From the NCBI GenBank assembly GCA_018433015.1, contig JAHDSB010000027.1, positions 46,380 to 110,379 on the forward strand: DNA of 64,000 nt. The letters run 5' to 3'. The DNA is from Clostridia bacterium. Its GTDB lineage: Bacteria > Bacillota > Peptococcia > DRI-13 > SV3-B141. The translations under genes were made by a program, and so were the position numbers. Shown one piece after another: positions 16,709 to 34,991 of the stretch (position 1 is the stretch's first letter; the number at the start of each line of letters is the position of its first letter). The notes beneath the pieces are model-generated. The model was not told the DNA's origin. It saw only the letters and a list, made by a program, of their open reading frames with translations, and searched no databases.

Positions 16709-16720
16709 AGACTATGAAAT

Positions 16721-17833: not shown

Positions 17834-18448
17834 TTAGAAGCATTGAGCAGGTGGTGTTGGTGGACATACGCCCGGTAATGTAACACATGGTGCAGGTACG
17901 CAGAAGCCGTAGCTAGGAACAAGAAGCTGTACTTCCAGAATGCATTTTACAACAACGCAAACTTGTAAAGTACATGTAACAGTTATAGTAGGATCATAGC
18001 CAGAAGGAACGTTAGTTACAATACAACTACAGAATATAACTGTACTTTCGCTACAATCAGGGTTAACACCAGGTGGGCAACATAATGTCACAGTTTTTGT
18101 GAAGGTGAAAGTTCTTTGAACGGTTTCAGTTGTATCTTTAGGGTTTGTTAGTGTGACAGGGACGGATATTAAGAGGGTGATTGTAAAGAATCCTCCACCG
18201 GCATCTACACGACCTACCTCTTGACATGTGATATCACCTGTTTGTGCACAAGGGATTATATCACCCTCAACAAAAGTATCAGTAAATTCTGTTGCGGTAG
18301 AAATGGTAGTGTCCCTTGAAATATCATGGACCTGGAAGCAGCTGTCATATACTTTATCAACTACAATACATTCTATTCTAGTTGGAGGTGGACAGCCTTC
18401 TGGCGGACATACGCCTGGAGAGATTTGAGCAACCTTAGCATCTGACAT
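17834..18448 (-). CDS. Cysteine-rich (18 Cys in 204 aa), Thr/Val/Pro-rich beta-type protein; putative spore-surface structural protein
   Basis: RBS AAAGGAGG upstream and a hairpin terminator downstream (17770-17802). PGVCPP motifs occur at both termini. There is no signal peptide. Confidence 0.6.
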   Translation of the reverse strand: MSDAKVAQISPGVCPPEGCPPPTRIECIVVDKVYDSCFQVHDISRDTTISTATEFTDTFVEGDIIPCAQTGDITCQEVGRVDAGGGFFTITLLISVPVTLTNPKDTTETVQRTFTFTKTVTLCCPPGVNPDCSESTVIFCSCIVTNVPSGYDPTITVTCTLQVCVVVKCILEVQLLVPSYGFCVPAPCVTLPGVCPPTPPAQCF

Positions 18449-19629: not shown

Positions 19630-19953
19630 TCAGCCGCGTTTAATGTAGTTATAACCTAATTTGGATATTGTGTAAGCAACCATTTGCAGGCTGGTTTTAG
19701 AGGTATCAATGTATACCTTTAATTTTTTTCGGTTAAGGAAAGGTTTTACTTGTGTTATTCCTTCCAAAGAAAGAAGTGAAGATGTTATAGTTTCCACGTC
19801 TTCATCACTGTTCATATCTGTAATTGTAATCATTATGGGAATATTCCTTTTACGCAGTATATAAAGATCTTCTTGTTGTTTTTTTGATGCATTATAGTAA
19901 TTATTATTTTTGAGAGTTTTATTCTCTTTCACTTTATCTTGATACCAGCTCAT
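19630..19953 (-). CDS. Hypothetical protein with HMA-like (ferredoxin-fold) C-terminal domain lacking the metal-binding cysteines
   Basis: IMITITDMNSDEDVETITSSLLSLEGITQVKPFLNRKKLKVYID...VAYTISKLGYNY follows the beta-alpha-beta-beta-alpha-beta HMA pattern, but GMTCxxC is replaced by DMNSDED. RBS AGGAGG. Confidence 0.45.
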   Translation of the reverse strand: MSWYQDKVKENKTLKNNNYYNASKKQQEDLYILRKRNIPIMITITDMNSDEDVETITSSLLSLEGITQVKPFLNRKKLKVYIDTSKTSLQMVAYTISKLGYNYIKRG

Positions 19954-19996: not shown

Positions 19997-20272
19997 TCAT
20001 TTTTCAGTTCTCTCAAAACTAACATTCTTTTGTTGCATTAAATATTCAATAAAGCCTCTACTGATGAAATCAGGATTATAACAGATAGCAACAGTATCGG
20101 GCTTTTCTAGGACACGGATCTCTTTTACTATAGGATAAAGAGTTTCAACCATTTTAGTTTTTATATGCTCATCCTCAAGATTATCAATTATATATTCACA
20201 AGTTTTTTCTTTATGTAGCTCCAGGGTTTCTCCGCGAGCATCTATCCAAAAGCGTGTTTGTGGTTTTCTCAT
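19997..20272 (-). CDS. Hypothetical protein (91 aa)
   Basis: ORF with RBS AAGGAGG, apparently co-transcribed with 19630..19953. No motif recognised. Confidence 0.45.
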   Translation of the reverse strand: MRKPQTRFWIDARGETLELHKEKTCEYIIDNLEDEHIKTKMVETLYPIVKEIRVLEKPDTVAICYNPDFISRGFIEYLMQQKNVSFERTEK

Positions 20273-20521: not shown

Positions 20522-21196
20522 ATGGACAAAAAAATCTTAATTAAATCATGTGCAGTCTTGGGATTATCAGTTTTCTTAATGACGCAATTTTCAATTGGAC
20601 AAGCCCATGCTTCCTGGGGAGCTGCTCGTTTAGTAGAGTTAAGGGCCCAACAAAACGCAACTCCTCCTGTTCCTACTAATCCCCCAGTTATACCAGAACC
20701 CGAACCAGAACCGGAATTAGAAAAGCCTCCCGTAACACAGCCTGATCCTCAACCACAGCCACCAGAAATTTCTGAGCCAACGCAACCTGACGAAGAACAA
20801 GAACAGCCCACGGGAATGTCTCAAGAAGAACTGTTAATGTTGCAAATGGTTAATGAAGCTCGAGAAAAGCAGGGGTTAAAGCCTTTACAACCCATGGCGA
20901 AGTTGAATGAACTTGCTAGATTAAAGAGTCAGGATATTATTGATAACAACTACTTTTCCCACACTTCCCCCACTTACGGATCTTTTGCTAATATGGTATA
21001 CGATGCTGGCATTAGGTTTTACTCCGTAGGTGAAAATTTAGCGAAAGCTAGAAATGCAAAACATGCTTACTATTTATTCATGGCCAGCTCGGGACATAAA
21101 GCCAATATTTTAAGTACAAACTTTACCCACGTAGGCATAGGTGTAGTTCCCTATAAATATGGTGTTGTTGTTACTCAATTATTTGTTATGCAGTAG
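20522..21196 (+). CDS. Secreted CAP/SCP (YkwD-family) domain protein with Pro/Glu-rich linker
   Basis: Signal peptide, PEPEPEPE/PQPQPP linker, and a C-terminal CAP domain with [21 protein letters not shown]...GHKANIL...HVGIGV, typical of the YkwD family. Confidence 0.8.
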   Translation: MDKKILIKSCAVLGLSVFLMTQFSIGQAHASWGAARLVELRAQQNATPPVPTNPPVIPEPEPEPELEKPPVTQPDPQPQPPEISEPTQPDEEQEQPTGMSQEELLMLQMVNEAREKQGLKPLQPMAKLNELARLKSQDIIDNNYFSHTSPTYGSFANMVYDAGIRFYSVGENLAKARNAKHAYYLFMASSGHKANILSTNFTHVGIGVVPYKYGVVVTQLFVMQ

Positions 21197-21215
21197 TAGA
21201 AAATTATTTCATAAT

Positions 21216-21270
21216 AAAGAGGCCTCAATTAAAGGTATTTCATTACTTTAATTGAGGCCTCTTTATTTTA
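21216..21270 (+). terminator. Intrinsic terminator after CAP-domain gene 20522..21196
   Basis: 19-bp stem AAAGAGGCCTCAATTAAAG / CTTTAATTGAGGCCTCTTT followed by ATTTTA. Confidence 0.8.
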
Positions 21271-21291: not shown

Positions 21292-21319
21292 ACCATTTAC
21301 TATACCTGCACATATAGTG
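21292..21319 (+). promoter_or_regulatory. Sigma-K-like promoter candidate: AC, 17 nt, CATATAGTG
   Basis: AC at 21292-21293, a 17-nt spacer, and CATAtagTG at 21311-21319. There is one mismatch to CATAnnnTA. It lies ~35 nt upstream of the 21354 start. Confidence 0.35.
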
Positions 21320-21353: not shown

Positions 21354-22571
21354 ATGTTTAATGTTTATGTGGGTGAAAACTACGTTATTAGCTACGATAA
21401 GAGTAAAGAGACAACATTTCAGGTAGTTTGCTCATCTCATAATGTCCCTTATCTAAAAAAGGATGAGGAGAACTATATTCTTTTTCCTTCTTTAAGGGGT
21501 GTTAATCTACTCGTTACTAATCTCAGCAAGGAAGATCAAAAAATAGATGAACTAGTGCAAAATCTTATTAATCAATTATTAAGTAGGGGAGCTCAAGTAT
21601 TATCAGGAGTTTCCAATAAGTCATTTAGTACTTTTGCTAACATTATGAATGCCCAGATGTTGCTAGGATTTTATAGTAAAGATTGTAGTAATGACAGCGA
21701 ATACCTGCGCATTTTTTATTCTTTAAAGAATAAGACTAAGAGTTTAAGTCTGGTTTCTGCCATAGCAAATAACTTGCAGAAACAACAACAACCGTTACCG
21801 TATAAAATAGCTAATATCTTTGAAGTATTAGGAAATTTGAAATATTTGAAGGTTTATTTATGTGAGGTTCCTACGGTGTTGTTAGAAATCAACACATCAA
21901 TATTAGAAAAGTATGATATAGAATCAGTGGTGATAAATGGTCTCATAGATATTTTTCAAAACCGCCCCGAGGAAAACGAACTTTTAAGTTTATGTGATAT
22001 TATGAAATATTTAGAAACAGAAGAGACCTGTACATATGAGAAAGACAGTGAAAATCAAGAAGAAGAGGTTAATAACATAGAGATCATAAGTGTAGAGAGT
22101 TTACAAGAAAGTGAGGAAGAAAGTGGTATAAAAGAAGTTAAAGTAACGGAAGAAGATAAAGCGCCGGATTTATTAGCTAATTGTACTAAAGAAGAGATCG
22201 ATAATAAACCCCAACAATTAAAAACTGCTTCCATATCTAAGAAAAAGAAGGCACTTGACAATAAAAAGCAAGATAATAAGTTAGCTAACAAGCAAAAACC
22301 CAGAAGAAATTATTTATCATGGATACCTCCTTTTGAAGAAAATATATATCAGTTTAGAGCACATTCTTATGAGGAAGACAATGCTTTTATCCCTATGCAA
22401 CCTAAAAAAGAACCTAAAAGTAAACCTGTTAATTATCAACCATATCAAAAGGAAAAAAGCAGGGAAAGAATATATCCCGTATATAAAGAACCTGTTAATC
22501 TTTTAGATGAATTGAAGACTCTGGGAACCCTGGTAGAACAGAATGATGAAAAAAATAATATGTATGTTTAA
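21354..22571 (+). CDS. Hypothetical bipartite protein (globular N-terminal ~215 aa plus highly charged Glu/Lys-rich C-terminal half)
   Basis: 405-aa ORF with RBS GTGGGGTG. A 29-nt gap to the next glycosyltransferase suggests co-transcription. A sigma-K-like promoter match lies upstream. Confidence 0.55.
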   Translation: MFNVYVGENYVISYDKSKETTFQVVCSSHNVPYLKKDEENYILFPSLRGVNLLVTNLSKEDQKIDELVQNLINQLLSRGAQVLSGVSNKSFSTFANIMNAQMLLGFYSKDCSNDSEYLRIFYSLKNKTKSLSLVSAIANNLQKQQQPLPYKIANIFEVLGNLKYLKVYLCEVPTVLLEINTSILEKYDIESVVINGLIDIFQNRPEENELLSLCDIMKYLETEETCTYEKDSENQEEEVNNIEIISVESLQESEEESGIKEVKVTEEDKAPDLLANCTKEEIDNKPQQLKTASISKKKKALDNKKQDNKLANKQKPRRNYLSWIPPFEENIYQFRAHSYEEDNAFIPMQPKKEPKSKPVNYQPYQKEKSRERIYPVYKEPVNLLDELKTLGTLVEQNDEKNNMYV

Positions 22572-22600: not shown

Positions 22601-23731
22601 ATGAAAGTTTTGCAAGAGCTACTGCTTTTAGGACCTGTTGACGAAGTTACTGGTTATGGTGAAATATCACGCCAAATTGCCTTTGGTTTAAATAGGATAG
22701 GAATAAAAGTAGGTATTGAAGCACAAAACTGGAGCAGGTGTCAGATAAACTTGAATGATAATGATAGGAAACGTTTAAAAGTAATGAAGAATCAACAGGA
22801 TAACTACTCACATTATTTATATGTCAATGTGCCCCAGTTTTTTAGAACTAGTAAGGGGAAATTAATAGCAGGATATACGATGTCTGAGGCCAGTGGTATT
22901 CCGGGTTATTGGGTGAAAAGTTGTAATTGTGTTGATTTGTTATTCGTGCCTACATCATTTAATTATGAAACATTTCAGGAAAGTGGTGTGCAGCAAGATA
23001 AGCTTAGAATAGTACCTTTAGGAGTTGATCATCAAATCTATACGCCGGAAGGCAAGAAATACCCTTTGCGGAGATCTGAGGCTTTGTTTACTTTTCTTTC
23101 AGTAGGGGAATGGGTAGAGCGCAAAGGCTTTGATCTTTTGATACAGGCCTTCGTTGAGGAATTCAGCAGAGCGGACGATGTTTGTCTTGTCCTCAAATGT
23201 CATAGTAGTGGTAGTGATTATGATCCCACGGGCGATAAAATATTAAAGGAAATCAAGAAAATTACTGCAGGTATAAAAAATACAGATGTACCTCCCATCA
23301 GGCTAATACCGTATACTTTACCGAGTTCAGAAATGCCATCTTTGTATAGAACAGCCCATTGCTTTGTGTCGCCTACCCGGGGTGAAGGTTGGAATATGCC
23401 AGTATATGAAGCTATAGCTTGTGGTGTACCTGTTATCACAACTAAATTGTCGGCACATTTAGATTATTTAAACCAGGAGAATTCTTATTTGCTTGAGATA
23501 GAAGAGTTAGAGAAAATCCCTTCCTTTAACAACCCAAATGATAAAATTTATCATGGGTTTTCATGGGCAAAACCTAGTAAAGAACATCTAAAATATTTAA
23601 TGAGAGAGGTATACGAGAAACATGAATCTGAAGCTAAGGGCAAAGCAAAAAAAGCTTTGAACATGGTTAGGAATTGTTTAGGATGGAATTTATGTGCACA
23701 ACGCATTATAGAATATATTAGCAACTGCTAA
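22601..23731 (+). CDS. Glycosyltransferase family 4 (GT-B, group 1)
   Basis: C-terminal GT1 motif SPTRGEGWNMPVYEAIACGVPVITT. It is a paralog of 26802..27953. Confidence 0.85.
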   Translation: MKVLQELLLLGPVDEVTGYGEISRQIAFGLNRIGIKVGIEAQNWSRCQINLNDNDRKRLKVMKNQQDNYSHYLYVNVPQFFRTSKGKLIAGYTMSEASGIPGYWVKSCNCVDLLFVPTSFNYETFQESGVQQDKLRIVPLGVDHQIYTPEGKKYPLRRSEALFTFLSVGEWVERKGFDLLIQAFVEEFSRADDVCLVLKCHSSGSDYDPTGDKILKEIKKITAGIKNTDVPPIRLIPYTLPSSEMPSLYRTAHCFVSPTRGEGWNMPVYEAIACGVPVITTKLSAHLDYLNQENSYLLEIEELEKIPSFNNPNDKIYHGFSWAKPSKEHLKYLMREVYEKHESEAKGKAKKALNMVRNCLGWNLCAQRIIEYISNC

Positions 23732-23751
23732 ATATAGACAGTTGCTTTTTT
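23720..23751 (+). terminator. Intrinsic terminator overlapping the stop of GT4 gene 22601..23731
   Basis: AGCAACTG-11 nt-CAGTTGCT followed by TTTTT. Confidence 0.7.
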
Positions 23752-23837
23752 ACATTTGAGTTTAGTAGATCTTAAGTAACCATCTAAGTGGACAATGAAT
23801 AAAATAGGATAAAGCCAAAGTTCATTGGAGGACGTAT

Positions 23838-25268
23838 ATGAAAAAAATTGCTTTAATATTAGCGGGAGGAAAGGGAAACCGTTTTTGGCCCAAAAGTTCC
23901 CTGGAAATGCCTAAACAATTTATTAATATAATCGGAGATTCAACTTTATTTCAAGAGACGGTAAAAAGAGCTGCATTAATCACTGCTGAGGAAGATATTT
24001 ATATTGTTTCAAGTTCTAGCTGTGTTAGTTTCATAAAAAATCAGGCACCCCAGATTCCCCAAGAAAATATAATATTAGAACCTTGTGGTAGAGACACAGC
24101 CCCAGCCTTAGGCTACTCCCTAGTTTGGCTTCAGGAAAAATATTCTGAAGCAGCTCTTTTTATATTGCCTTCCGATCACTATGTAGCAGAGATGGATAAA
24201 TGGAAAGAAACATTAATAAAGGCTTGCGATTTAGCAGAAAGTAAATCGCCGGTTGTAATAGGTATAAGCCCTAACAGACCTGAAACAGGCTATGGTTATA
24301 TTAAGAAAGGAAATAAATGTTTCGAAAAAAATCAGGTGTATTGGAAAGTAACAGAATTTATTGAAAAACCCGATTTTAATAAAGCTTTAAAGTTTTTGGA
24401 GGCACAAGATTATTTGTGGAATAGCGGCATGTTTATTTGGAAACTATCAGATCTTATTAAACAATATAAAAAAAATTTGCCCTGTACATTTGAACAAATA
24501 TCTGAAATATATACAATCATGAAAAATAATAATTGGAACTACTGGTTAAAGGAAGATGTAGTTGAGGTAAAAGAAGAATATAAAGCTATTAACCCCATTT
24601 CCATTGATTATGGAATCATGGAACATCTCCACAACATATACTTATTGCCGGGTATTTTTCTTTGGGATGATGTGGGGGGATGGCAAGCTTTAGAGAGACT
24701 GCATCCAAAAGATTCCAATAATAATATAAATCTAGGTAATGCTGCCTTAATAAAATCAGATAACTGCATCGTAGACTGCTATGATGGCACTGCTTTAATA
24801 GCAGGTATAAAAGATACCGTAGTAGCACATCAAGACAGTAAGTTATTAGTTTGTCATAAGGATTATTTGCCCCAACTTAAAGAGCTATTAAAAGAAGCAA
24901 TTTTTTTCAAACGAGAAGAAAGTGAGGAACATGAAGGAATAAAAAAAGTAGAAAAACCATGGGGGCAAGAGATCTGGTGGGCAGTAACTAATAAATATGC
25001 TGCTAAGATTTTAGAAATAGAAAAAGGGTCTTCTACTAGTTTTCATTATCATCAAAAAAAATTGGAAACTTTTTATATCACTAAAGGAAGGGGAACTATT
25101 AAACTTCAGGAAAGAACAGAGGAGTTATATCCCGGCAAAGTAATTGAAATATATCCCGGGGAGCCTCACCGCTTAAATGCTTTGAGTAATCTTCAAATAA
25201 TTGAAGTTTCAACACCGGAACTTGATGATGTTGTTAGAATTTCTGATTATTATGGACGTTCGGATTAA
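23838..25268 (+). CDS. manC: Mannose-1-phosphate guanylyltransferase / mannose-6-phosphate isomerase (bifunctional type)
   Basis: N-terminal nucleotidyltransferase LILAGGKGNRFWPKS...MPKQF and a C-terminal type-II PMI cupin (KPWGQEIWW...SFHYHQKKLETFYITKGRG). Confidence 0.88.
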   Translation: MKKIALILAGGKGNRFWPKSSLEMPKQFINIIGDSTLFQETVKRAALITAEEDIYIVSSSSCVSFIKNQAPQIPQENIILEPCGRDTAPALGYSLVWLQEKYSEAALFILPSDHYVAEMDKWKETLIKACDLAESKSPVVIGISPNRPETGYGYIKKGNKCFEKNQVYWKVTEFIEKPDFNKALKFLEAQDYLWNSGMFIWKLSDLIKQYKKNLPCTFEQISEIYTIMKNNNWNYWLKEDVVEVKEEYKAINPISIDYGIMEHLHNIYLLPGIFLWDDVGGWQALERLHPKDSNNNINLGNAALIKSDNCIVDCYDGTALIAGIKDTVVAHQDSKLLVCHKDYLPQLKELLKEAIFFKREESEEHEGIKKVEKPWGQEIWWAVTNKYAAKILEIEKGSSTSFHYHQKKLETFYITKGRGTIKLQERTEELYPGKVIEIYPGEPHRLNALSNLQIIEVSTPELDDVVRISDYYGRSD

Positions 25269-25292
25269 ATTTGAAAGGGAAGGATTGATATT

Positions 25293-26285
25293 ATGAGGAT
25301 ATTAATAACAGGCATTAGCGGTTTCGCCGGCAGTCATTTGGCTGAGTATGCTTTGCAACTGGGAGAAGTAGAAGTCTACGGTACTATTCGTAATAGGAGT
25401 CGTTTAGATAATATTAAGCATCTGTTGCATAAAATTAAGTTAGTGGAATGTGATTTGCGGGACCCATTTTCTGTAAGGAAAATAATCAGTGATGTAAAAC
25501 CTGAGAGAATATTTCATTTAGCCGCTCAAAGTTTTGTGCCCACCTCTTGGAAAGCACCGGAAGAGACCTTAACCACTAATATTGTAAGTGAATTAAATAT
25601 ATTTGAAGCACTGAGATTAGAAAAAGTAGATGCTCGAGTGCAAATTGCTTGTTCTTCTGAGGAGTATGGTCAAGTCTACCCGATAGAAACGCCTATTAAA
25701 GAAGATAATCCTTTAAGACCTCTTAGTCCCTATGGAGTAAGCAAAGTTGCACAGGATTTATTGGCCTATCAATATCATGCTTCTTATGGATTATACACAG
25801 TGCGAACACGTGCCTTTAATCATACGGGACCACGGAGAGGGGAAATATTTGCTACCTCTAATTTTGCAAAACAGATAGCTGAGATAGAAAAAGGACTTAA
25901 AGAACCTGTTATTTATACAGGAAACTTAGAAGCTTTACGAGATTTTACAGATGTGCGGGATATGGTTAGAGGATATTGGCTAGCGTTAGAAAAAGGTACA
26001 CCAGGAGATGTTTATGTGTTAGCCTCTGGAGAAGCTTATTCTATTGGCCGAATGTTAGATGTGTTGCTTTCTTTTTCAACAAGTAAAGTAACTATAGAGC
26101 AGGACTCTTCCAGAATGAGACCTTCGGATGTTCCTATTCTATTAGGAGATGCTACTAAATTTCAGCAGCAATGTGGATGGAAGCCGGAGATTAGTTTTGA
26201 AAAAACCATGGAAGATTTACTTAACTATTGGCGTGACAGAATAAGAATTAATATACAGAGTGGTGAGGTAAATGAGCAAGATTAG
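25293..26285 (+). CDS. GDP-mannose 4,6-dehydratase family SDR (Gmd/Rmd-like)
   Basis: Rossmann motif ITGISGFAGSHL, catalytic YGVSKVAQD, and NHTGPRRGE typical of the Gmd/Rmd extended SDR family. It is adjacent to manC. Confidence 0.8.
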   Translation: MRILITGISGFAGSHLAEYALQLGEVEVYGTIRNRSRLDNIKHLLHKIKLVECDLRDPFSVRKIISDVKPERIFHLAAQSFVPTSWKAPEETLTTNIVSELNIFEALRLEKVDARVQIACSSEEYGQVYPIETPIKEDNPLRPLSPYGVSKVAQDLLAYQYHASYGLYTVRTRAFNHTGPRRGEIFATSNFAKQIAEIEKGLKEPVIYTGNLEALRDFTDVRDMVRGYWLALEKGTPGDVYVLASGEAYSIGRMLDVLLSFSTSKVTIEQDSSRMRPSDVPILLGDATKFQQQCGWKPEISFEKTMEDLLNYWRDRIRINIQSGEVNEQD

Positions 26286-26781
26286 GGGTAAGAACTTATT
26301 ATTCAATGGTGCTTTTGATATTGAAGATCCTGAGATAGTTTTTCCTATGGGCTGGCTTCCTTGCAATGAAAATATAGGAACTGTTTTACAATGGTCTGGA
26401 GAAAAAGCCGTATATGGTGATCATACCATAATAATAGATAATCATAACTACACCGAGAATATGACAGGTATTATGTTGGAAGATAAATATTATTTTGATG
26501 TTAGACAAGGGGAAGAATATGAAATATCGGCGTGGATGGCAACAGAGCGGAGAGGAGTACCTTTACGTTTAATTGTTGTTATGAGAAAGCCTGATTATTC
26601 CTACCTTTGTGAAGAACACTTTAAATTTTTATCTACCCAGGAAATGTCTCGCTATGAAGGAACATTTACTATACCTGCTAAAGCAGCTCTGCTAAATGTG
26701 AGTGTAGGAGTGCATGATACTGAAGAAACATTGCCAAGCAAAACCTGGATATCATGGGTAGCTTTGCGTAAATTAATGTAG
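26272..26781 (+). CDS. Hypothetical protein, CBM4/9-like jelly-roll (no signal peptide)
   Basis: N-terminus KNLLFNGAFDIEDPEIVFPMGW resembles the NLxxNGxFExxxxxW opening of CBM_4_9 modules. The start overlaps the preceding SDR gene by 14 nt, suggesting translational coupling. Confidence 0.45.
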   Translation: MSKIRGKNLLFNGAFDIEDPEIVFPMGWLPCNENIGTVLQWSGEKAVYGDHTIIIDNHNYTENMTGIMLEDKYYFDVRQGEEYEISAWMATERRGVPLRLIVVMRKPDYSYLCEEHFKFLSTQEMSRYEGTFTIPAKAALLNVSVGVHDTEETLPSKTWISWVALRKLM

Positions 26782-26801
26782 ATAGTAGAGGGAGAAGAGC
26801 T

Positions 26802-27953
26802 ATGCTAAGAATTAGAATTCATGGCCCTTTTGATGATGTGACAGGTTATGCTGAAACTGTGCGGCAAATAGCAATGAGCTTATTTGATATAGGAATAGAA
26901 GTTTCCATGGAAGTATTTAACTGGGGAACTACGCGGATAGATTTGTCTAGGGACCAATTAAAGAAGGCGGAGATAATCAAACAAAAAAATAATAAATATG
27001 ATGTAATTCTTAATATCAGTATTCCTATTTTTTTTAATATAGTACAAAACAAACCGTGCCTAGGTATAACTATGTTGGAGGTAGATGGTATTCCTGAAAA
27101 GTGGTCTTATATATGTAATAAGCTGGATAGTATCATAGTACCTTCAGAATTCAATAGAAACACGTTTTGTAATAGCGGTGTTTTGTTAGAAAAATTAAAA
27201 GTTGTACCTTTAGGTGTAGACTCCCAGTTTTTTGTTGATGATGGGGCGTGTCTATTCCCCTGTTTAAATAACTATGACTTTATTTTTTTATCTATAGGAG
27301 AATGGATACCTCGCAAGGGTTTTGATTTTTTGATAAAAGCTTTCTTACAGGAGTTTACTAGTGCAGACAATGTATGCCTTGTTATAAAAAGTCATTCTAA
27401 CGGGAAAGATTATGATCCTTGTGGTTTAGCAATAAAATTTGAAATTAAAAAACTTATTAAACAAGTTAAAAGAAAGAAGGGGGTTAAATACCAACCTCCC
27501 ACTATAACTGTTATTCCATATACCTTACCGGCTCAAAACATGCCGGCCTTGTACCGCCAGGCCCATTGTTTTGTTTTAGCAACCAGAGGAGAAGGGTGGA
27601 ATATGCCGGCTTTTGAAGCTTTAGCATCGCGGGTTCCTGTTATAACTACAAAATGGTCTGCTCATTTAGACCATTTAGATGAAACCAATTCATATTTAAT
27701 TGAGCTGGAAGGATTAGAACAGGTACCTTCTTATGGATTGAGTACAGATGAGATTTATAGGGGATTTAAATGGGCAAAGCCTAGTATGGAACATCTACAA
27801 TATCTATTAAGATATGTTTATGAAAATTATGAAGAAGCTAAGGGTAAAGCAGAAGCAGGGGCTAATTATGTAAAAAACGAACTTAGTTGGAATAAATGTG
27901 CCCAAAAGATAGAAAATATTTGTTTGAATAGTAAAAATGTTAATAAGAATTAA
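26802..27953 (+). CDS. Glycosyltransferase family 4 (paralog of 22601..23731)
   Basis: Colinear similarity to 22601..23731 along the whole length, e.g. GEWIPRKGFDFLIKAFLQEFTSADNVCLVIKSHSNGKDYDP versus GEWVERKGFDLLIQAFVEEFSRADDVCLVLKCHSSGSDYDP, and ATRGEGWNMPAFEA. Confidence 0.85.
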   Translation: MLRIRIHGPFDDVTGYAETVRQIAMSLFDIGIEVSMEVFNWGTTRIDLSRDQLKKAEIIKQKNNKYDVILNISIPIFFNIVQNKPCLGITMLEVDGIPEKWSYICNKLDSIIVPSEFNRNTFCNSGVLLEKLKVVPLGVDSQFFVDDGACLFPCLNNYDFIFLSIGEWIPRKGFDFLIKAFLQEFTSADNVCLVIKSHSNGKDYDPCGLAIKFEIKKLIKQVKRKKGVKYQPPTITVIPYTLPAQNMPALYRQAHCFVLATRGEGWNMPAFEALASRVPVITTKWSAHLDHLDETNSYLIELEGLEQVPSYGLSTDEIYRGFKWAKPSMEHLQYLLRYVYENYEEAKGKAEAGANYVKNELSWNKCAQKIENICLNSKNVNKN

Positions 27954-27967
27954 AGGATGAGCGGATT

Positions 27968-29035
27968 ATGGTACGTAGTGTTTTATTTACAAGTAAGAGA
28001 CCGCAAATTATTATGGTGTTACCTTCATGGCAACAGCGATGTGGAATTTCTGAATATACTAGGTCCTTAACAGATGCCTTAAAAAATGAGGGCTGTAATG
28101 TTGAAGTAGTTAAAGATATTTTATTACTATTGGGAAAAGGAGATATTACAGAAGAAAAAATAATACATTTACAGTATGAATACAGCTTGTTTACTTACCC
28201 AGTCATCCAGAAGATAATCACTCATTTGCATAGTAAAAACATTCCTTTTCTGATAACAGCTCATTCATATACCCAGGAACTAGCAGTATATAATAATTTA
28301 TTAAAAGAAATAAAGCCTTTAATAGTTCATAATACACACATAGCTAAAAAGATGAGTTGTGATGGTTGGAATTCTAAAAATTTAAGAGTGATACCAATGG
28401 GAGTAGATGATATCTATCAACATAGCAATAGTAGTAAAGGGAGGCAAGAGTTAAAAATAAGTGGAGATCCCTGTATCGGTTTTTTTGGCTTTATGCATTG
28501 GTATAAGGGCATCCTTCACTTGCTGGAAGCAGTAGATATAATTAAAAAGCATAAACCTCTGGTGAAATGTTTTATGTTTTCTAGTCTTTCTGAAAACGAA
28601 GGTTCGCAAAAGTTTTATAAATTATTTCAGACGAAATTAAAGAAGCTTAAAATAAATAATAATATTTATTTAAATACAAAGTATCTTCCCAAAGAAGAAC
28701 TAATCAAGCATTTATCATTAATGGATGTAAATATATTACCTTATGTAGATTCTAACTACTATGCCTCCTCGGCAGCTGTTAGAATGCTTTTAAGTGCAGG
28801 TAAACCAATAATAACGAGCAATAGCAATTTTTTTGCAGATTTACAAGAGGGAGTATATAAAATTAATGAAGTAAGTAGCCAATGTATAGCTGATGCTATA
28901 TGTTACGTGCATAATAATCTTGAACTACAGGAGAGTTTATTAAAAAAGGGAGAGAATTATGTGAAATCCCATCCTTGGAAAGTTTGTGCACAACAACATA
29001 TAGGAATATATGAAGAAGTTTTTAAACAAAAATAA
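27968..29035 (+). CDS. Glycosyltransferase family 4
   Basis: N-terminal WQQRCGISEYTRSL motif is shared with 30539..31594. GT-B architecture; no TM segment. Confidence 0.75.
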   Translation: MVRSVLFTSKRPQIIMVLPSWQQRCGISEYTRSLTDALKNEGCNVEVVKDILLLLGKGDITEEKIIHLQYEYSLFTYPVIQKIITHLHSKNIPFLITAHSYTQELAVYNNLLKEIKPLIVHNTHIAKKMSCDGWNSKNLRVIPMGVDDIYQHSNSSKGRQELKISGDPCIGFFGFMHWYKGILHLLEAVDIIKKHKPLVKCFMFSSLSENEGSQKFYKLFQTKLKKLKINNNIYLNTKYLPKEELIKHLSLMDVNILPYVDSNYYASSAAVRMLLSAGKPIITSNSNFFADLQEGVYKINEVSSQCIADAICYVHNNLELQESLLKKGENYVKSHPWKVCAQQHIGIYEEVFKQK

Positions 29036-29060
29036 AAGAAGAGAGTCTTAGGCTGGTTCA

Positions 29061-29099
29061 ACACCCCAAATGTTAGTTTTTTACTAATACTTGGGGTGT
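29061..29099. terminator. Bidirectional hairpin between convergent genes (GT4 on + and cupin on -)
   Basis: ACACCCCAA ... TTGGGGTGT outer stem with an inner GTTAGT/ACTAAT extension. Confidence 0.6.
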
Positions 29100-29140
29100 A
29101 CTTCAGTTCTAGGACCCTTCTTCATTTCTTTAGACCGAAT

Positions 29141-29530
29141 CTATACATTAAAAGTATCGGTTTCAGTAAGAGAATCGCATTTATCAAAAAAACCCAGGAT
29201 ATATACATCCTCTTTACTTATGTTGACAAAGCGGTGAGCGATATAAGGTGGTACAACAATTATTTGAGTATCGTTTTCTGAAAGATGTAATGTTTCGGAT
29301 TCTTGAGTTAATACATTAGTAAGAGTCAAAAGGCAATGACCTTTTATGATGAAAAAATATTCTGTTTTTTGTTCATGATAATGATTTGCTTTACTAACCC
29401 CCGGTTTTACAGTTGTTAGATATAATAGTCCCTGGGAACAGAGTTTTGCTTGATCTCCTCGGAAGATTTCAACATGCCAACCCCGCTGGTCTTCTTTTTT
29501 TACTAGGTCAATAATACTAACTGAGTCCAA
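29141..29530 (-). CDS. Cupin-fold sugar-nucleotide epimerase/isomerase-like protein
   Basis: KEDQRGWHVEIFR...KANHYHEQKTEYFFIIKGHCLL matches the cupin His motif seen in WxcM/CapF/RmlC-like proteins. The ORF is open to 29560, but AAGGAGG lies 8 nt before TTG 29530. Confidence 0.65.
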   Translation of the reverse strand: MDSVSIIDLVKKEDQRGWHVEIFRGDQAKLCSQGLLYLTTVKPGVSKANHYHEQKTEYFFIIKGHCLLTLTNVLTQESETLHLSENDTQIIVVPPYIAHRFVNISKEDVYILGFFDKCDSLTETDTFNV

Positions 29531-29762
29531 GGTTAATACCTCCTTTATCCAGTGCAACACATCTGGATATTTTTTGACTATAAGGAGAAAAAAGAAAAGA
29601 ATTTTGACAAAATTTGCTGACGTATTAGTTCATATTTTATATTATGAACTTGTCAAAAGGATTGTGCAGATAGGAATTTTTAGAGGTATAACAAAACAGG
29701 GAAGTTATGAATAAAATATAGGAGCTTGCTTAATAAAATTGATTTAGTCACGAGGTGATGAC

Positions 29763-30542
29763 ATGCCTAATAGTAGAAGAAATTCAATTACAGCAGTATA
29801 TATTGTTAAAAATGAAGAAGAATACTTACCCTTTTCTATCAAATCAATATATAATGCGGTGGATAAAATAATAGTATTAGATAATGGTTCAACGGATCAG
29901 ACCCCATTGATTGCAAAAGAGTTTGCTAAAGTACAGCTATTATTTGATGAAAGAGAAAATTTTAGCTATTTACGAAATAAAGCTTTGCAAAAGGTGGATA
30001 CAGAATGGTTCCTTTGGGTTGATGCTGATGAGGTATATTACAGGGATATTGAAGAAAAATTACCTGTACTGCTGCAAAACAAAAAAGTAGACTGTTATTA
30101 TTGCTGGTTTTACCATCTGATGCGGAGTTATTATTATATGCAAAATATTAGTGATAAAGATGGACGTTATAAGCGAATATCTATTGTTCGCAATTCACCT
30201 AACATCAGATTTAAAGGTGCTGTGCATGAAAGATTAACAGGCTGCGGAAAAAATCAAGCAGATTCTGATTTGTTTTTTGTCCATTATAGCTATACAAAAC
30301 CTCCGGAAGTAATTCTAGAACATTGGAAACAATACGATAGACTTGGTGGGACCAATACTGTTGATGAAAATACTGACCCACAAAAGTTGTTAGTAGATAG
30401 GCCACTGTATCCTTTTCGCAGAGAACATCCAGAAGTCATCAGAGATTATGTTCATAAAAAGGCAGAAATTTTAGCTAGCCAGGGCAATAAATTATATCAA
30501 AAGTTACCACCAGAAGTAGAAGCAGAAGGAATAAAGTTATGA
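29763..30542 (+). CDS. Glycosyltransferase family 2
   Basis: ITAVYIVKNEEEYLPFSIKSIYNAVDKIIVLDNGSTDQT and a DxD motif (VDADE). Confidence 0.8.
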   Translation: MPNSRRNSITAVYIVKNEEEYLPFSIKSIYNAVDKIIVLDNGSTDQTPLIAKEFAKVQLLFDERENFSYLRNKALQKVDTEWFLWVDADEVYYRDIEEKLPVLLQNKKVDCYYCWFYHLMRSYYYMQNISDKDGRYKRISIVRNSPNIRFKGAVHERLTGCGKNQADSDLFFVHYSYTKPPEVILEHWKQYDRLGGTNTVDENTDPQKLLVDRPLYPFRREHPEVIRDYVHKKAEILASQGNKLYQKLPPEVEAEGIKL

Positions 30543-31594
30543 GGATAGCTTTTATTTCTAGTTGGCGGGCAAAATGTGGAATTGCCGAACATACCAGGTT
30601 TTTAGCAGAAACATTGCAACAACTGGGGCATGAGGTAATAATCTTATGTAATTACCCCCTAGATGATTTGCCGGATAGGGAATCATCTATCGAATATTAT
30701 CCCTTTTTTTATACAAGTTGGCATAAAGAAAGGGGTGTCGATATATCTGGAGCTTTAGAAATATTACAGAAAAAAAAGATTGATATTATTCACTGGCAAT
30801 ATCAAAACTTTCTTTATCCTGATCCTTTTTTAAAACAGATATTGAAAGTAGCACTCCGGATCCCACTAATAGTAACTTTTCATGATCCCCTTCTTCCTCG
30901 TGAATTTCCTCGGGATATATGTGAGGGGGCAGTCTTTCACTGTGAAGATACCTTAAATTTAATTGGGTGGAATAGACCATATTTAATAGCGCCTATCGGT
31001 ATACATTTATGGGAGGACCGGCCTAAAAAATTACTGCGAAATAAACTGAAAATATCTTCCCGCCATGTTCTTTGCTCTTTGGGTTTAGGTCGAACTGACT
31101 ACCAGAAAGTGATGCAAGCGTTAGCAAATTTAAAGGATAAATATCCCGATATTCTCTATATTGCCATAGGGCCACAACCAAGTATTGAGAATATAAAAAA
31201 ATTTGCTGAAGAGAAGGGGCTTTTGCAAAACCTCATTATCGATAATTCGTTTCCTGACATAGAAAAAATTAAAGATTATCTCCAAGCAGCTGATATGATA
31301 GTTTTTTATTATCCCAACTTTGCAGTGGAGGGGGTTTGTTCTGCTGCTGTGAGATTGGGAATTGCAGCTCAACGACCGGTAATAATTACAGATGTAAACT
31401 TGATGAAGGATCTTCCTCAAAAGCTAAAAATTACTTACGATAAAAGAGATGAATTAAAACATCGTATTGAAGAATTATTTAATAATAAAAATTTGTATCG
31501 CCAGGTTTTAACTATACAAAAGGATCTGATAAATCACTATAACTGGACTAATGTTGCTGAAAAACATGTAGATTTTTATAGAAAGTTTATCTAG
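30539..31594 (+). CDS. Glycosyltransferase family 4
   Basis: MRIAFISSWRAKCGIAEHTRFL is the same N-terminal motif as 27968..29035. The start overlaps the previous stop by 4 nt (ATGA). Confidence 0.78.
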   Translation: MRIAFISSWRAKCGIAEHTRFLAETLQQLGHEVIILCNYPLDDLPDRESSIEYYPFFYTSWHKERGVDISGALEILQKKKIDIIHWQYQNFLYPDPFLKQILKVALRIPLIVTFHDPLLPREFPRDICEGAVFHCEDTLNLIGWNRPYLIAPIGIHLWEDRPKKLLRNKLKISSRHVLCSLGLGRTDYQKVMQALANLKDKYPDILYIAIGPQPSIENIKKFAEEKGLLQNLIIDNSFPDIEKIKDYLQAADMIVFYYPNFAVEGVCSAAVRLGIAAQRPVIITDVNLMKDLPQKLKITYDKRDELKHRIEELFNNKNLYRQVLTIQKDLINHYNWTNVAEKHVDFYRKFI

Positions 31595-31665
31595 CTTAAA
31601 CCCTAAAGCCTTAAAAGAGAAAGAGTCCCCAAGTTATCTCAAAATACTTCAGGGACTCCTTCTTT

Positions 31666-32370
31666 TTATATACTTTTTAATGAACCCCACTTTTTTGCAT
31701 AGTATGCAGCATTATGGCGGCTGGCTTTGCTTTGTTCTATATATTTGCGTGTACCCATGGCTTCATGCCAAACGACGCTAGCTTTAGTTATCATTACTTG
31801 ATAACCTTTAGCAGAAATACGGTTATTATAATCCCAATCTTCATATCCACCACACCGCTTATAATATTTATCAAAAAAACCAACTTCTTCTATCACATGA
31901 CGTGGCATTATCCAAGGGCAGCCATTGCCTGGAAAGAGAATATTTTGGTTATTTCTCATAAAAGCTTCTGCATTTTTAAAATCATCTTGTTGGGAGTTAT
32001 CCCACCAATTATAAGGGCTAAGCTTACCTATACTCTTATTATTTTGTAAAACATTAAGCAAAGCTTCTAGCCATCCTGAGAAAAACAGCATATCATTATG
32101 GATCCAGCCAATATAAGAAATAACAGGTTTATTCAAATAGTATTTTAATCCTTGATTTAAGGCAATAGCTAATGAAGTATCTTTTTTGTTAGTAATAATT
32201 GGTATATGCATTGCATGTAAATAATTAAGGGTGCCATCCGTAGAGTTATTATCAACTACTAATAATTCAAAAGGATGATGCGTTGATCGATAGAGCCTTT
32301 CTAAGGCTTGTTTAGTTTTATCAAGTTGATTAAAGGTTGTTAAAATCAAACCAACATTTACCTTTTGCAT
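31666..32370 (-). CDS. Glycosyltransferase family 2
   Basis: VGLILTTFNQLDKTKQALERL...LLVVDNNSTDGT. A perfect sigma-K-type promoter match lies upstream on the - strand. Confidence 0.8.
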   Translation of the reverse strand: MQKVNVGLILTTFNQLDKTKQALERLYRSTHHPFELLVVDNNSTDGTLNYLHAMHIPIITNKKDTSLAIALNQGLKYYLNKPVISYIGWIHNDMLFFSGWLEALLNVLQNNKSIGKLSPYNWWDNSQQDDFKNAEAFMRNNQNILFPGNGCPWIMPRHVIEEVGFFDKYYKRCGGYEDWDYNNRISAKGYQVMITKASVVWHEAMGTRKYIEQSKASRHNAAYYAKKWGSLKSI

Positions 32371-32400: not shown

Positions 32401-32428
32401 TAATATATGGGATATAATATAACTTTGT
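32401..32428 (-). promoter_or_regulatory. Sigma-K-type promoter candidate: AC, 17 nt, CATATATTA (read on the - strand)
   Basis: The - strand reads aACaaagttatattatatccCATAtatTA. This is a full match to AC-N17-CATAnnnTA, ~30 nt upstream of the GT2 gene start at 32370. Confidence 0.45.
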
Positions 32429-32537: not shown

Positions 32538-33551
32538 ATGAGGGATAAAATGGATTTAAAGAAAGTCAGAATTATGTTAGGATTCGCATTACTTTTCCTT
32601 TTCTCTTTTTCACTTTTAGCCCCCGTTGCAAATGCCTCACTACAGCCTTCTGATCAGCAGACAGTCATGGCTAAACCTGGTGATAATAATGCGACTGTAA
32701 AAGAAATAAAGTCTATGCTTAAAGAGCAGGGCTATTTATATTTTTATGGAAATACTAATGGGTACTATTCTAGAGCAACCAAGATTGCTGTATATTTATT
32801 TCAAAGAGCCAATAGGTTACCTGCTACCGGAATAGTTGACTCTTTGACTTATCAAGTACTGAAGGATAAATGTACTTCCGCGGAACCTCAGCCAGAGCCA
32901 CAACCGACTCCTGATCCAGAACCACAACCTACACCAGAGCCAACACCTGAGCCTCAGCCAGAACCCCAACCTACACCAGAACCAACACCTGAGCCTCAGC
33001 CGGAACCCCAGCCTACACCAGAACCAACACCTGAGCCTCAGCCGGAACCCCAGCCTACACCAGAACCAACACCTGAGCCTCAGCCGGAACCCCAACCTAT
33101 TCCTGAACCAACACCTGAGCCTCAACCAGAACCTCAACCGGCTCCTGATGTGGCAGGATTATCTGCAGATGAACAGCAAATGCTAAATCTCATTAATGAA
33201 GAAAGGGCAAAGGCTGGTGTTGCACCCTTACAGGCAGATATGCGGCTGGTGCAAAGTGCTCGTAAAAAGAGTCAGGATATGATCGACAATAATTATTTCA
33301 GCCATACTTCACCTACTTTAGGTAGTTTTGCTGAGCTAATTCGCAGTACTACCGGAGGAGATTACGGATATATTGGAGAAAACTTAGCAGGTGCACCGTC
33401 TGTTGAAATAGCTCATAAAAACTTAATGAACAGTGAGGGACATCGTAAGAATATTCTTAATCCAAATTACACTCATATTGGGATAGGAGTAATTGATGGT
33501 GGACCGTACGGTAAAATGTTTACTCAACATTTTGGCGGCTTAATTAAATAA
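32538..33551 (+). CDS. Secreted protein: PG_binding_1 domain, tandem [14 protein letters not shown] repeats, CAP/SCP (YkwD-family) domain
   Basis: Signal peptide. PG-binding motif [15 protein letters not shown]...[21 protein letters not shown]. About 4.9 copies of a 14-aa Pro-rich repeat. CAP domain [21 protein letters not shown]...GHRKNIL...HIGIGV. Confidence 0.85.
32934..33140 (+). repeat. In-frame 42-nt tandem repeat (~4.9 copies) encoding [14 protein letters not shown]
   Basis: Units start at 32934, 32976, 33018, 33060 and 33102, with only synonymous or near-synonymous differences. It lies inside CDS 32538..33551. Confidence 0.9.
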
Positions 33552-34136: not shown

Positions 34137-34164
34137 ACCCCTCCTTGTACCTCTTCATATTATA
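34137..34164 (+). promoter_or_regulatory. Sigma-K-type promoter candidate: AC, 17 nt, CATATTATA
   Basis: AC at 34137-34138, a 17-nt spacer, and CATAttaTA at 34156-34164. This is a full match, ~48 nt upstream of the Cys-rich gene start. Confidence 0.45.
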
Positions 34165-34211: not shown

Positions 34212-34991
34212 TTGCTAGATATGGAGTTAGCTGCGCAAGTCAAAGAATTATGGAAAAACCCTGAAATACAAGCAATGGCTCGTCGTTGTTTCCACAAAAA
34301 ATTTAAATGTACGCCAGTGATTATGGAAAAAATTTGTGCTTCCGGTACAAGATGTTTCCATGATGTTCATTATCTCTTTGAATCTGAAAGCGGGCGTCCT
34401 ATACCTGCCGATGCATGTCCCATTAATTGTGTAGTAAGCAACTTTGCTATATGTGGTGTTGGAAATGAGCCACTCCGAGATGCCCAGCAGCCTCCCAGAA
34501 GAATAGGGGATTGTGTAATCTTTACAGTAGTATACAAAGTACGTGTTTGGTTTGAGTTTTTTGATACTTGTTCAAACAGTGTTGAAGTTGGGATGGCCAG
34601 CAAAGTCTTTGAACGGGAACTGGCTGTACCCGTAGAAGATATTGACGGGGGATGTATACTTTGTCAGCCAGAAGCTGTGGATCTCTGCATAAGAAGAATT
34701 AACTTAGATTGCATCAGGGCTGTAGTTGTTCCTCGTCCCGAGGGATTCCCGTGTACTTACCCACCATATGCTATAGAGGTTACTGTGGAGAAAGAATTTT
34801 TTGCTCTAGAATCAGGACGTTCAATTGTATGTATTCCTACTTGTGTAGAAGAATGTATTGATCTACCGTTCCCAATATTCCCAGGAGAATGTGTTCCCTT
34901 TGAGCGTGAGCCAAAATGCGATGAGTATTGTGAGGAAACCGACTTAGATCCAGGACATTGCGCAGAATGTCCACCCCTTGATGATGAATAA
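34212..34991 (+). CDS. Cysteine-rich protein (22 Cys in 259 aa), putative spore coat/exosporium structural protein
   Basis: RBS AAAGGAGGG. A perfect sigma-K-type promoter lies upstream (AC-17 nt-CATATTATA at 34137-34164) and an intrinsic terminator downstream. No signal peptide; acidic Cys-rich C-terminus. Confidence 0.6.
   Translation: MLDMELAAQVKELWKNPEIQAMARRCFHKKFKCTPVIMEKICASGTRCFHDVHYLFESESGRPIPADACPINCVVSNFAICGVGNEPLRDAQQPPRRIGDCVIFTVVYKVRVWFEFFDTCSNSVEVGMASKVFERELAVPVEDIDGGCILCQPEAVDLCIRRINLDCIRAVVVPRPEGFPCTYPPYAIEVTVEKEFFALESGRSIVCIPTCVEECIDLPFPIFPGECVPFEREPKCDEYCEETDLDPGHCAECPPLDDE

Follow-up and report, generated by a model that had tools for sequence, protein, structure and literature searches.

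The 64-kb window analysed here (64,000 nucleotides of contig JAHDSB010000027.1 in the Clostridia bacterium assembly GCA_018433015.1) carries a cluster of glycosylation genes, which we describe together with the genes that flank it. The cluster consists of ten contiguous open reading frames (ORFs; 22601–32370) that encode, in order, GT4a1, ManC, SDR (a short-chain dehydrogenase/reductase), a CBM_4_9-like protein (CBM, carbohydrate-binding module), GT4a2, GT4b1, a cupin, GT2a, GT4b2 and GT2b, where GT denotes glycosyltransferase (Table 1). An earlier reading of the DNA by itself (the original prediction) had placed a ten-ORF cluster here, with two GT2s, a ManC, a Gmd/Rmd-type SDR, a cupin and a CBM-like protein among its products; all of the ORFs are present exactly there, and assignment with Pfam and NCBIfam bears these families out.

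The cluster lies in an island of slightly lower G+C content (approximately 17.8–35 kb; G+C, 0.32–0.35) between two blocks of housekeeping genes: murC-murB-murA-ftsQ-ftsZ-spoIIGA-sigE-sigG-ylmC-nrdR-nrdD-nrdG at the start of the window and ylmD(pgeF)-phoPR-pstB-phoU...ylmE-sepF-proC-ylmH-divIVA after the island. This gene content indicates an anaerobic endospore former as the host. Identical copies of the proteins are encoded on a contig of an uncultured metagenome-assembled genome (MAG; GCA_018434615.1) and in several sequencing runs, and the nearest protein relatives carry the labels of Clostridia or Peptococcaceae MAGs. For comparison, species-representative genomes were scanned for GT4a relatives, which yielded 79 loci (47 from Bacillota and 32 from outside Bacillota) onto which all proteins of the window were mapped; individual related loci or contigs are referred to by L-numbers.

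Table 1 Features of the island, in order of position
Feature	Position	Strand	Description
Cys204	17834-18448	-	204 aa, Cys/Pro-rich; NF052457 (BMQ_0737 family), E 4.5e-5, profile positions 2-193 of 199
unk329	18632-19621	+	No family match; syntenic homologues in L090 and L091
HMA-like small protein	19630-19953	-	Weak HMA/CopZ matches
unk91	19997-20272	-	Homologues in L091 and L092
CAP224	20522-21196	+	PF00188, 3.2e-15; TIGR02909 spore_YkwD, 138 bits (cut-off 171); N-terminal signal-like segment
Terminator hairpin	21213-21266	+	After CAP224; -32.3 kcal/mol, z -9.15
sigK-type motif ACCATTTACTATACCTGCACATATAGT	21292-21318	+	Upstream of X405
X405	21354-22571	+	N-terminal pseudo-amidase_3 domain (~220 aa), acidic then basic disordered linker, C-terminal helix
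GT4a1	22601-23731	+	Glycos_transf_1/Glyco_trans_1_4; retaining GT-B with EX7E motif
Terminator-like hairpin and T-run	23720-23752	+	After GT4a1; -12.6 kcal/mol, z -3.25, followed by UUUUUU
Near-consensus mother-cell motif AC-N17-AATAAAATA	23779-23806	+	Upstream of ManC
ManC	23838-25268	+	TIGR01479, 1.2e-91, full length, 308 bits (cut-off 373); NTP_transferase and cupin/PMI C-terminal domain
SDR	25293-26285	+	GDP_Man_Dehyd, 2.7e-88; RMD/GMD hybrid
CBM_4_9-like protein	26272-26781	+	PF02018, 8.4e-6, just over the gathering score; no signal peptide
GT4a2	26802-27953	+	GT4; paralogue of GT4a1
GT4b1	27968-29035	+	GT4; divergent GT-B without EX7E
Bidirectional terminator hairpin	29038-29123	.	Convergent GT4b1/cupin; -42 kcal/mol, z -7.09
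Cupin	29141-29560	-	PF14667 Polysacc_synt_C, 2e-20; Cap5F in PDB, 6.7e-7
sigK-type motif ACAATCCTTTTGACAAGTTCATAATAT	29639-29665	-	Upstream of cupin
Near-consensus motif AC-N17-AATAAAATA	29691-29718	+	Upstream of GT2a
GT2a	29763-30542	+	259 aa, GT-A; TIGR04195, 9e-16; stop overlaps GT4b2 start (ATGA)
GT4b2	30539-31594	+	GT4; divergent GT-B
Bidirectional terminator hairpin	31616-31665	.	Convergent GT4b2/GT2b; -18.1 kcal/mol, z -3.55
GT2b	31666-32370	-	GT-A; PF00535, 9.5e-17
sigK-type motif ACAAAGTTATATTATATCCCATATATT	32402-32428	-	Upstream of GT2b
CAP337	32538-33551	+	Secreted; PG_binding_1, PEPQPT-repeat linker, CAP/YkwD-like domain; divergent from cluster
sigK-type motif ACCCCTCCTTGTACCTCTTCATATTAT	34137-34163	+	Upstream of Cys259
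Cys259	34212-34991	+	Cys-rich, no family match; last island gene before ylmD

Soluble transferases and GDP-sugar enzymes

Kyte–Doolittle hydropathy (19-residue windows) reached 1.6 in none of the ten cluster proteins (maximum, 1.39), in agreement with the proposed absence of transmembrane segments. The flippase, polymerase, ABC exporter and priming transferase that the original prediction had found missing from the cluster are missing from the whole window as well: Wzx, Wzy, an ABC-2 exporter or a polyprenyl-phosphate priming transferase is not encoded anywhere within the 64 kb, nor is a Wzm/Wzt exporter, a ligase or an O-oligosaccharyltransferase. Only SpoIIGA, LspA, a 163-aa protein and a P-type ATPase fragment have at least three hydrophobic segments among the products of the window.

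On the basis of its domains, ManC is a predicted mannose-1-phosphate guanylyltransferase/mannose-6-phosphate isomerase (type II PMI-GMP). The adjoining SDR has the RMD of A. thermoaerophilus as its best PDB match (2pk3; 1.9e-84, end-to-end alignment), followed by GDP-heptose 4,6-dehydratase and then by GDP-mannose 4,6-dehydratases (GMDs), and does not reach the cut-off of the Gmd model TIGR01472 (200.9 bits; cut-off 415). It joins RMD-type SSEEYG with GMD-type FNHTGPRRGE, where the A. thermoaerophilus RMD shows GPGQSLG, and contains the Gmd-type catalytic residues and motif (Ser/Thr-Glu...Tyr-x3-Lys and NH-x-x-P-x-RGE) in the form of SSEEYG, SPYGVSK and FNHTGPRRGE. King and colleagues are said to have proposed in 2009 that Arg185 of the Pseudomonas aeruginosa GMD, which lies in the RGE motif, is important for GMD function. 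Bifunctional GMDs exist (PMC3584063). The hybrid-type enzyme is the sole SDR beside ManC in the Bacillota loci L007, L008, L011, L035, L040 and L048; Priestia instead encodes GMD (337 aa, FNHESPRRG) and an RMD-type SDR (308 aa) as two proteins, and Peribacillus has a GMD/RMD pair of 337 and 309 aa, of which the RMD carries FNHIGPGQRLG. The SDR is predicted to act on a GDP-sugar as a 4,6-dehydratase and/or 4-reductase, and the hybrid would be able to dehydrate GDP-mannose, probably yielding GDP-D-rhamnose. Because this lone SDR joins both kinds of motif, the donor of the cluster is probably GDP-mannose and/or GDP-D-rhamnose; the earlier guess of GDP-mannose or a GDP-6-deoxyhexose thus gains support from the RMD match, the motif alignment and the comparison across loci. 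Similarity to the C-terminal domain of Cap5F/CapF makes the cupin a possible 4-keto-sugar epimerase that may modify a 4-keto intermediate. The gene for the CBM_4_9-like protein overlaps the SDR stop by 14 nt and accompanies the cluster in three Moorella loci (L011, L012 and L013), and a PDB search returned no solved relative of its product.

The transferases include two GT4 pairs. GT4a1 and GT4a2, judged roughly half identical by eye in the original prediction, share 52% identity over 364 aa (E 5e-135), and both glutamates of the GT4a1 EX7E motif (E262 and E270) are invariant in the family alignment. GT4b1 and GT4b2 do have in common the N-terminal SW-x2-(K/R)CGI(S/A)E(Y/H)TR motif that had been noticed, with an overall identity of only 23% (E 2e-11). 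Their family (the window pair and 25 homologues) is without EX7E, the second Glu being replaced by a conserved Arg/Lys in G-[TIV]-S-[SA]-A-[VA]-[RK], and in relatives GT4b domains adjoin or are fused to an EX7E-bearing GT4a; conceivably, GT4b acts as a GT-B partner of a non-canonical or accessory kind. GT4a is itself fused to further GT4 and GT2 domains in proteins of 765–1036 aa (orthologues of GT4a2 in L011, L013 and L024), and such fusions suggest that the transferases of the cluster act on one product. GT4a1 has one weak solved-structure match (5i45; E 5.6e-6), the PDB search gave no solved relatives for GT2b or GT4b2, and weak NCBIfam matches of the cluster GT4s include glycolipid-making enzymes. 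GT2b co-occurs with GT4a in 33 loci.

GT2a is a candidate protein-priming glycosyltransferase. Its best PDB matches are the O-GlcNAc transferase GmaR (7.9e-19, GT2a residues 6–178), which is the flagellin glycosyltransferase of Listeria (PMC3150276), and the peptide S-glycosyltransferases SunS/ThuS (approximately 1e-11), and its top NCBIfam match is the SunS family. Like these enzymes, GT2a has a GT-A domain with a DxD motif (DAD, within FLWVDADEV); unlike them, it lacks the TPR and C-terminal domains used there for substrate binding or regulation (no TPR match in Pfam and no C-terminal substrate-recognition domain in its 259 aa). GmaR/SunS-type enzymes modify proteins or peptides directly in the cytoplasm, so GT2a fits a carrier-free pathway.

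Promoters and transcription units

Saujet et al. described a mother-cell consensus for C. difficile and B. subtilis in which sigE and sigK share the −10 element (CATATTAT, CATATAAT) and differ in the −35 element (ATA for sigE and AC for sigK; PMC3789822). In the window, where the ten cluster genes are spread over five transcription units, a strict sigK-type motif (AC-N16/17-CATAnnnT) precedes X405–GT4a1, the cupin gene, GT2b and Cys259. Upstream of X, the gene family to which X405 belongs, AC-N16/17-CATA recurs in seven of eight loci, in which the X proteins are 20–35% identical and the remaining upstream DNA is unalignable. The −10 box of X405 (CATATAGT) is identical in six of the eight (the window, L005, L007, L008, L089 and L090); L091 has CATATGCT and L092 has CATATTAT. 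Likewise, AC-N16/17-CATA(T/A)(T/G/A)AT(A/G) stands before Cys259 in the window and in L005 and before both Cys259 copies of L008. The boxes upstream of ManC and GT2a are near-identical to one another, (A)AC-N17-ATGAATAAAATA-GGA, which suggests that these two units are under common regulation. Across the Bacillota loci, the sigK-type motif stands before 20 of 122 operon-leading glycosylation genes compared with 33 of 317 other genes (p = 0.06), and in the non-Bacillota loci before none of 28 glycosylation genes; by themselves, these counts lend weak support to transcription in the mother cell. Sigma-70-type sites were not enriched (73 found versus 75 expected).

X405 and GT4a1 are separated by 29 nt without a hairpin and a terminator follows GT4a1, and GT4a1 is thus apparently co-transcribed from the conserved X promoter. 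The functional unit is accordingly larger than the ten genes in our prediction, and X405 also belongs to it. Hairpins were identified by folding, as a simpler terminator scan overlooked those with long loops. The two minus-strand genes (for the cupin and GT2b) had been described as each insulated by hairpins. The hairpins are real; each is a terminator common to the 3′ ends of two convergent genes, and the 5′ sides of both genes are divergent promoter regions rather than insulated ends.

Conserved flanks and related loci

The N-terminal 220 residues of X405 define a family of 73 representative clusters with no sequence match in Pfam, NCBIfam or PDB. An AlphaFold (AF2) model built from 47 sequences (predicted local distance difference test (pLDDT), 91.8; an earlier model from 3 sequences was unusable at 51.9) resembles Amidase_3 enzymes (Foldseek probability 1.0, E 8e-7 to 1e-5, template-modelling (TM) score 0.5–0.6). 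Neither the Zn-binding His/Glu/His nor the catalytic Glu of such enzymes was found, as the invariant and near-invariant columns of the 47 sequences include no His or Glu, and X is therefore best regarded as a pseudo-enzyme. The linker is followed by a conserved PPxDGPxxxF-like motif (PPxxxxxYQF), and there is no signal peptide. We infer that X may have a structural or scaffolding role in the outer spore layers, where it is also a candidate to accept the glycan.

Cys204, at the other end of the same block, belongs to a family of which 24 of 27 members match the BMQ_0737 model (best, 5.5e-11; the L015 homologue, 4.2e-8). In B. megaterium, BMQ_0737 is located in the outermost layers of the spore, whose integrity depends on it (PMC4656864). 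Cys204 and the 24 matching relatives align along almost all of the 199-position model but form a Clostridia-specific, very Cys-rich subfamily that scores below the cut-off. The family has 161 detected homologues in spore-forming Clostridia (Moorella, Alkaliphilus, Zhaonella and Desulfitobacteriia), and in L015 two Cys204 copies lie directly upstream of ManC–GT4a. None of the 27 members matched Pfam SPOCS/DUF3794; two UniRef names of homologues read 'SipL SPOCS' or 'DUF3794', which we take as a lead only. Cys204 shows no significant pairwise similarity to Cys259.

The block Cys204(−), unk329(+), HMA(−), unk91(−), CAP(+), X(+) recurs in L090–L092 by homology and in L095 and L096 by size and order, and is found with or without the glycan module. 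Its smaller members follow suit: a 328-aa gene occupies the position of unk329 in L095 (matched by position and size), the HMA-like gene is syntenic by homology in L015 and L090–L092, with HMA-annotated genes at the same position in L094–L096, and unannotated genes of 91–92 aa stand in the place of unk91 in L094–L096 (again by position and size). Among 11 X loci, the GDP-sugar module comes directly after X in six, lies within 5.5 kb in one and is absent in two, the contig being too short in the remaining two; this variation indicates that X is primarily a member of the block and that the glycan cassette is its frequent neighbour. These contexts were gathered by exact look-ups, and a metagenome scan for X gave one 1.8-kb contig.

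On the far side of the cluster, CAP337 reaches 152 bits on the spore_YkwD model, like CAP224 below the cut-off, and a CAP337-like gene lies upstream of GT4a in 17 loci. The CAP337 linker is encoded by a 42-bp tandem repeat (5.3 copies, 93% matches; 32916–33139), and orthologues of 333 aa (L001) and 309 aa (L002), compared with 337 aa in the window, occur on otherwise near-identical contigs, which suggests that the repeat number varies between strains. Cys259 is 64–75% identical to its syntenic homologues, above the values for neighbouring enzymes. In L008 it is duplicated in tandem (11507–13207), each copy with its own sigK-type motif.

Close relatives of GT4a are rare (only 27 clusters at E ≤ 1e-10). 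A four-gene unit, X-ManC-SDR-GT4a, with GT4a last, occurs in L005 (Peptococcaceae MAG), L008 (Clostridia MAG) and L007. In L005, the next genes after GT4a are a Cys-rich one (67% identity to Cys259) and ylmD; in L008, five genes, of which three are glycan genes and another is CAP337-like, stand between GT4a and the two Cys259 copies (64% and 75%) that precede ylmD. The number of glycan genes between X and Cys259/ylmD therefore differs (approximately 4 in L005, 7 in L008 and 10 in the window) with the flanks conserved, and variable content with constant flanks is what diversity loci for surface glycans usually show. By its gene order, the island is a variable cassette inserted between conserved genes of spore-envelope type (Cys204-unk329-HMA-unk91-CAP-X on one side; CAP337, Cys259 and ylmD on the other).

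GT4a, GT4b, GT2a, GT2b, ManC and SDR co-occur in many genomes, among them those of many spore-forming Bacillota. Gene content is nearly the same in Moorella sp. UBA4076, where genes for the CBM-like protein and the cupin are also present; the transferase set is also present in Priestia abyssalis, Peribacillus, Fictibacillus, Brevibacillus, Effusibacillus, Cohnella and Paenibacillus cymbidii, and in many Bacillota MAGs, often directly downstream of a CAP337-like gene. Genes for proteins with at least three hydrophobic segments make up 3.4% of the genes in the 47 Bacillota loci (818 kb) compared with 9.8% of those in the 32 non-Bacillota loci, and entire 20-kb stretches, for example in Priestia abyssalis, are without polytopic membrane genes.

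Elsewhere in the window, the stretch between nrdG and the island (13776–17362) encodes three proteins: one that is lipoprotein-like with DUF5643, one with TPR/PD40, and one of 154 aa whose only domain is sigma-70 region 4. A DUF2935 gene (45597–46583, minus strand; 2.5e-59) has a good sigK-type motif (ACATCTTGCTAAGCAGTACATATAAT at −68) and may likewise be expressed late in the mother cell. No Rfam family reached the gathering score in the window, and this includes the region upstream of gcvT (49100–49470), where Firmicutes commonly have a glycine riboswitch.

Proposed glycosylation of the outer spore layers

Taken together, we think it probable, with fair rather than full confidence, that the locus is a late-sporulation, mother-cell, carrier-free glycosylation island for coat or exosporium proteins of the outer spore layers. 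The original prediction of a spore-surface glycan built in the mother cell is supported in silico by the conserved sigK-type promoters, the coat-like neighbours, the likeness of GT2a to GmaR and SunS and the membrane-poor Bacillota relatives. ManC would supply GDP-mannose; the single RMD/GMD-hybrid SDR would dehydrate it and probably reduce the product to GDP-D-rhamnose, and the cupin may epimerise the 4-keto intermediate. GT2a would start the chain by attaching a sugar directly to a protein of the coat or exosporium—the disordered linker of X405 and the Cys-rich proteins being candidate acceptors—and GT4a1, GT4a2, GT4b1, GT4b2 and GT2b would extend the chain, which the cytoplasmic CBM-like protein would bind. 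As the surface of the developing spore faces the mother-cell cytoplasm, a lipid carrier, flippase, polymerase and exporter would be unnecessary.

Several observations weigh against this interpretation. Promoter assignment is motif-based, the ManC and GT2a units have near-consensus boxes only, and the enrichment over neighbouring genes within the Bacillota loci is weak, as given above; Cys204 scores 23.7 bits on the coat model, whose curated cut-off is 71. The absence of membrane machinery applies to the 64 kb covered, and a priming transferase, an exporter or a gmd gene may lie elsewhere in the genome. Others would suit a vegetative envelope glycan (an S-layer glycan, secondary cell-wall polymer or exopolysaccharide) made by an ABC-transporter-dependent D-rhamnan or mannan route with its membrane machinery encoded elsewhere. 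ManC, an RMD-like SDR and several GT4s are the enzyme set of GDP-D-rhamnose/mannose homopolymer pathways, the best solved relative of the SDR is an RMD of the A. thermoaerophilus S-layer glycan pathway, and the GT4-GT4-GT2 fusions of relatives resemble polymerising O-polysaccharide transferases. GT4a relatives (33–38% identity) occur in the non-spore-formers Gemmatimonas, Acidobacteriota and Chloroflexota, so that this enzyme family is not spore-specific. In L007, WecA-like, MurJ/Wzx-like and CsaB genes lie approximately 2.4–5.6 kb away, the core being about 2.4 kb from the WecA/MraY-like gene and about 4 kb from the MurJ/Wzx-like gene and CsaB, on the opposite strand; a Wzy_C–TPR protein near the X block of L095 points in the same direction. 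Even so, we consider a vegetative glycan unlikely. Exporter and priming genes are absent both from the 64 kb here and from the approximately 20-kb neighbourhoods of most Bacillota relatives, the sigK-type promoters are conserved and sigma-70-type sites show no enrichment, the neighbouring genes are coat-like, and GT2a resembles direct protein glycosyltransferases, unlike lipid-linked ones.

Both comparison loci deserve a closer description. In L007 (8596–14785, minus strand), MurJ/Wzx-like, CsaB pyruvyl transferase and DUF5693 genes, which are secondary-cell-wall-polymer genes, are located approximately 4–6.7 kb from the core, and the X-ManC-SDR-GT4a core itself is at a different chromosomal site from that of the window. 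In L095, a single 809-aa protein with Wzy_C (O-antigen-ligase-like) and TPR parts (4016–6445, minus strand) is encoded at a distance of approximately 2.5 kb from the X/Cys204 block, and no GDP-sugar module lies near that block; the Wzy_C–TPR protein could be unrelated, or could hint at another glycosylation route in that lineage.

The transferases might instead glycosylate a non-spore target in the cytoplasm, such as a secreted protein (the Pro/Thr-rich linker of CAP337, or flagellin), a glycolipid or a small molecule. GmaR acts on flagellin and SunS on a secreted peptide, the PEPQPT linker of CAP337 is long, CAP337-like genes recur beside GT4a in the 17 loci, and soluble GT4s can make glycolipids, as the weak NCBIfam matches recall. 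The CAP proteins, however, have Sec-type signal peptides, CAP337 is transcribed divergently from the cluster, and accessory secretion or flagellar genes are not found nearby; to our knowledge, YkwD-type CAP proteins are restricted to endospore formers, which we also count against such a target. Mother-cell promoter motifs and coat-like neighbours suit a spore target better, and we regard the non-spore alternative as distinctly improbable. Matches of GT4a1 and GT4a2 to the PF20706 GT4-conflict family (34 bits) raised the idea of a phage-defence or 'conflict' system, which we rejected as next to negligible in probability: no PADLOC model matches any cluster protein, generic GT4 families score higher, and the context is sugar-nucleotide biosynthesis with six glycosyltransferases.

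Glycosylation of the spore surface from the mother cell has precedents. In B. subtilis, sigK promoters drive the sps genes in the mother cell, and what the gene products make ends up on the spore surface (PMC7439481). Like spsA-L/spsM, cge, cotSA, ytc and yfn the cluster combines soluble nucleotide-sugar enzymes with GT2 and GT4 transferases, has no flippase or exporter, and is linked to outer-layer structural genes. It differs from them in that its proteins give generic GT/SDR matches only in Pfam and NCBIfam (a comparison through family models rather than protein by protein), in its predicted GDP-mannose/GDP-6-deoxyhexose donors (dTDP-rhamnose or CMP-legionaminic acid in B. subtilis), in its Clostridia host and in its neighbours, which are X405 and Cys204/Cys259 rather than Cge/CotVWXYZ. 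In C. difficile, SgtA glycosylates BclA3 directly (PMC7157674), and there, as for BclA of the B. cereus group, a soluble transferase that acts in the cytoplasm is encoded beside its exosporium substrate under mother-cell sigma factors (PMC7157674, PMC3789822). The window, by contrast, has no collagen-like BclA gene, many more transferases and a dedicated GDP-sugar pathway. With the P. aeruginosa common polysaccharide antigen, the A. thermoaerophilus S-layer glycan and E. coli O9a, the cluster shares ManC, a GMD/RMD-family SDR, multiple GT4s and (in relatives) GT fusions. Such homopolymer pathways need a lipid-carrier priming transferase, Wzm/Wzt and a ligase or oligosaccharyltransferase, and usually have separate Gmd and Rmd enzymes; the membrane parts are absent from the window, and its SDR is a single hybrid. 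Most likely, the strategy is one already known, spore glycosylation from the mother cell, and what differs is the enzyme set, with a GDP-sugar chemistry otherwise found in lipid-carrier pathways.

A bolder version of the spore-layer reading, which we offer tentatively and think rather doubtful as a whole, would make X405, Cys204, Cys259, HMA/unk91 and the YkwD-like CAPs an unrecognised outer-spore-layer assembly locus of Peptococcaceae/Moorella-type Clostridia. Its hypervariable GDP-sugar cassette, set between conserved structural genes, would be the spore equivalent of an O-antigen locus. A GmaR/SunS-type GT2 would begin the glycan directly on a coat protein, perhaps through an S-linkage to cysteine, and a single bifunctional GMD/RMD would supply D-rhamnose.

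Spore-surface glycans govern adhesion, hydrophobicity, dispersal and immune recognition, and we know of no groups in which they have been worked out other than the B. subtilis and B. cereus groups and C. difficile. The locus suggests a different, GDP-mannose/D-rhamnose toolkit in a large group of anaerobic Clostridia and in several Bacilli with the same GT set. It brings in new players, namely a GmaR/SunS-like candidate priming GT2a, a single hybrid GMD/RMD and a pseudo-amidase family X beside Cys-rich coat-like proteins. We see the most useful leads in the conserved promoter, in GT2a with its GmaR/SunS likeness, in the hybrid SDR and in the X/Cys-rich block. As the GT set is carried by cultured strains (Priestia abyssalis DSM 25875, Brevibacillus borstelensis and Effusibacillus consociatus), and Cys204 by Moorella thermoacetica, the proposed glycosylation of outer spore layers is directly testable.

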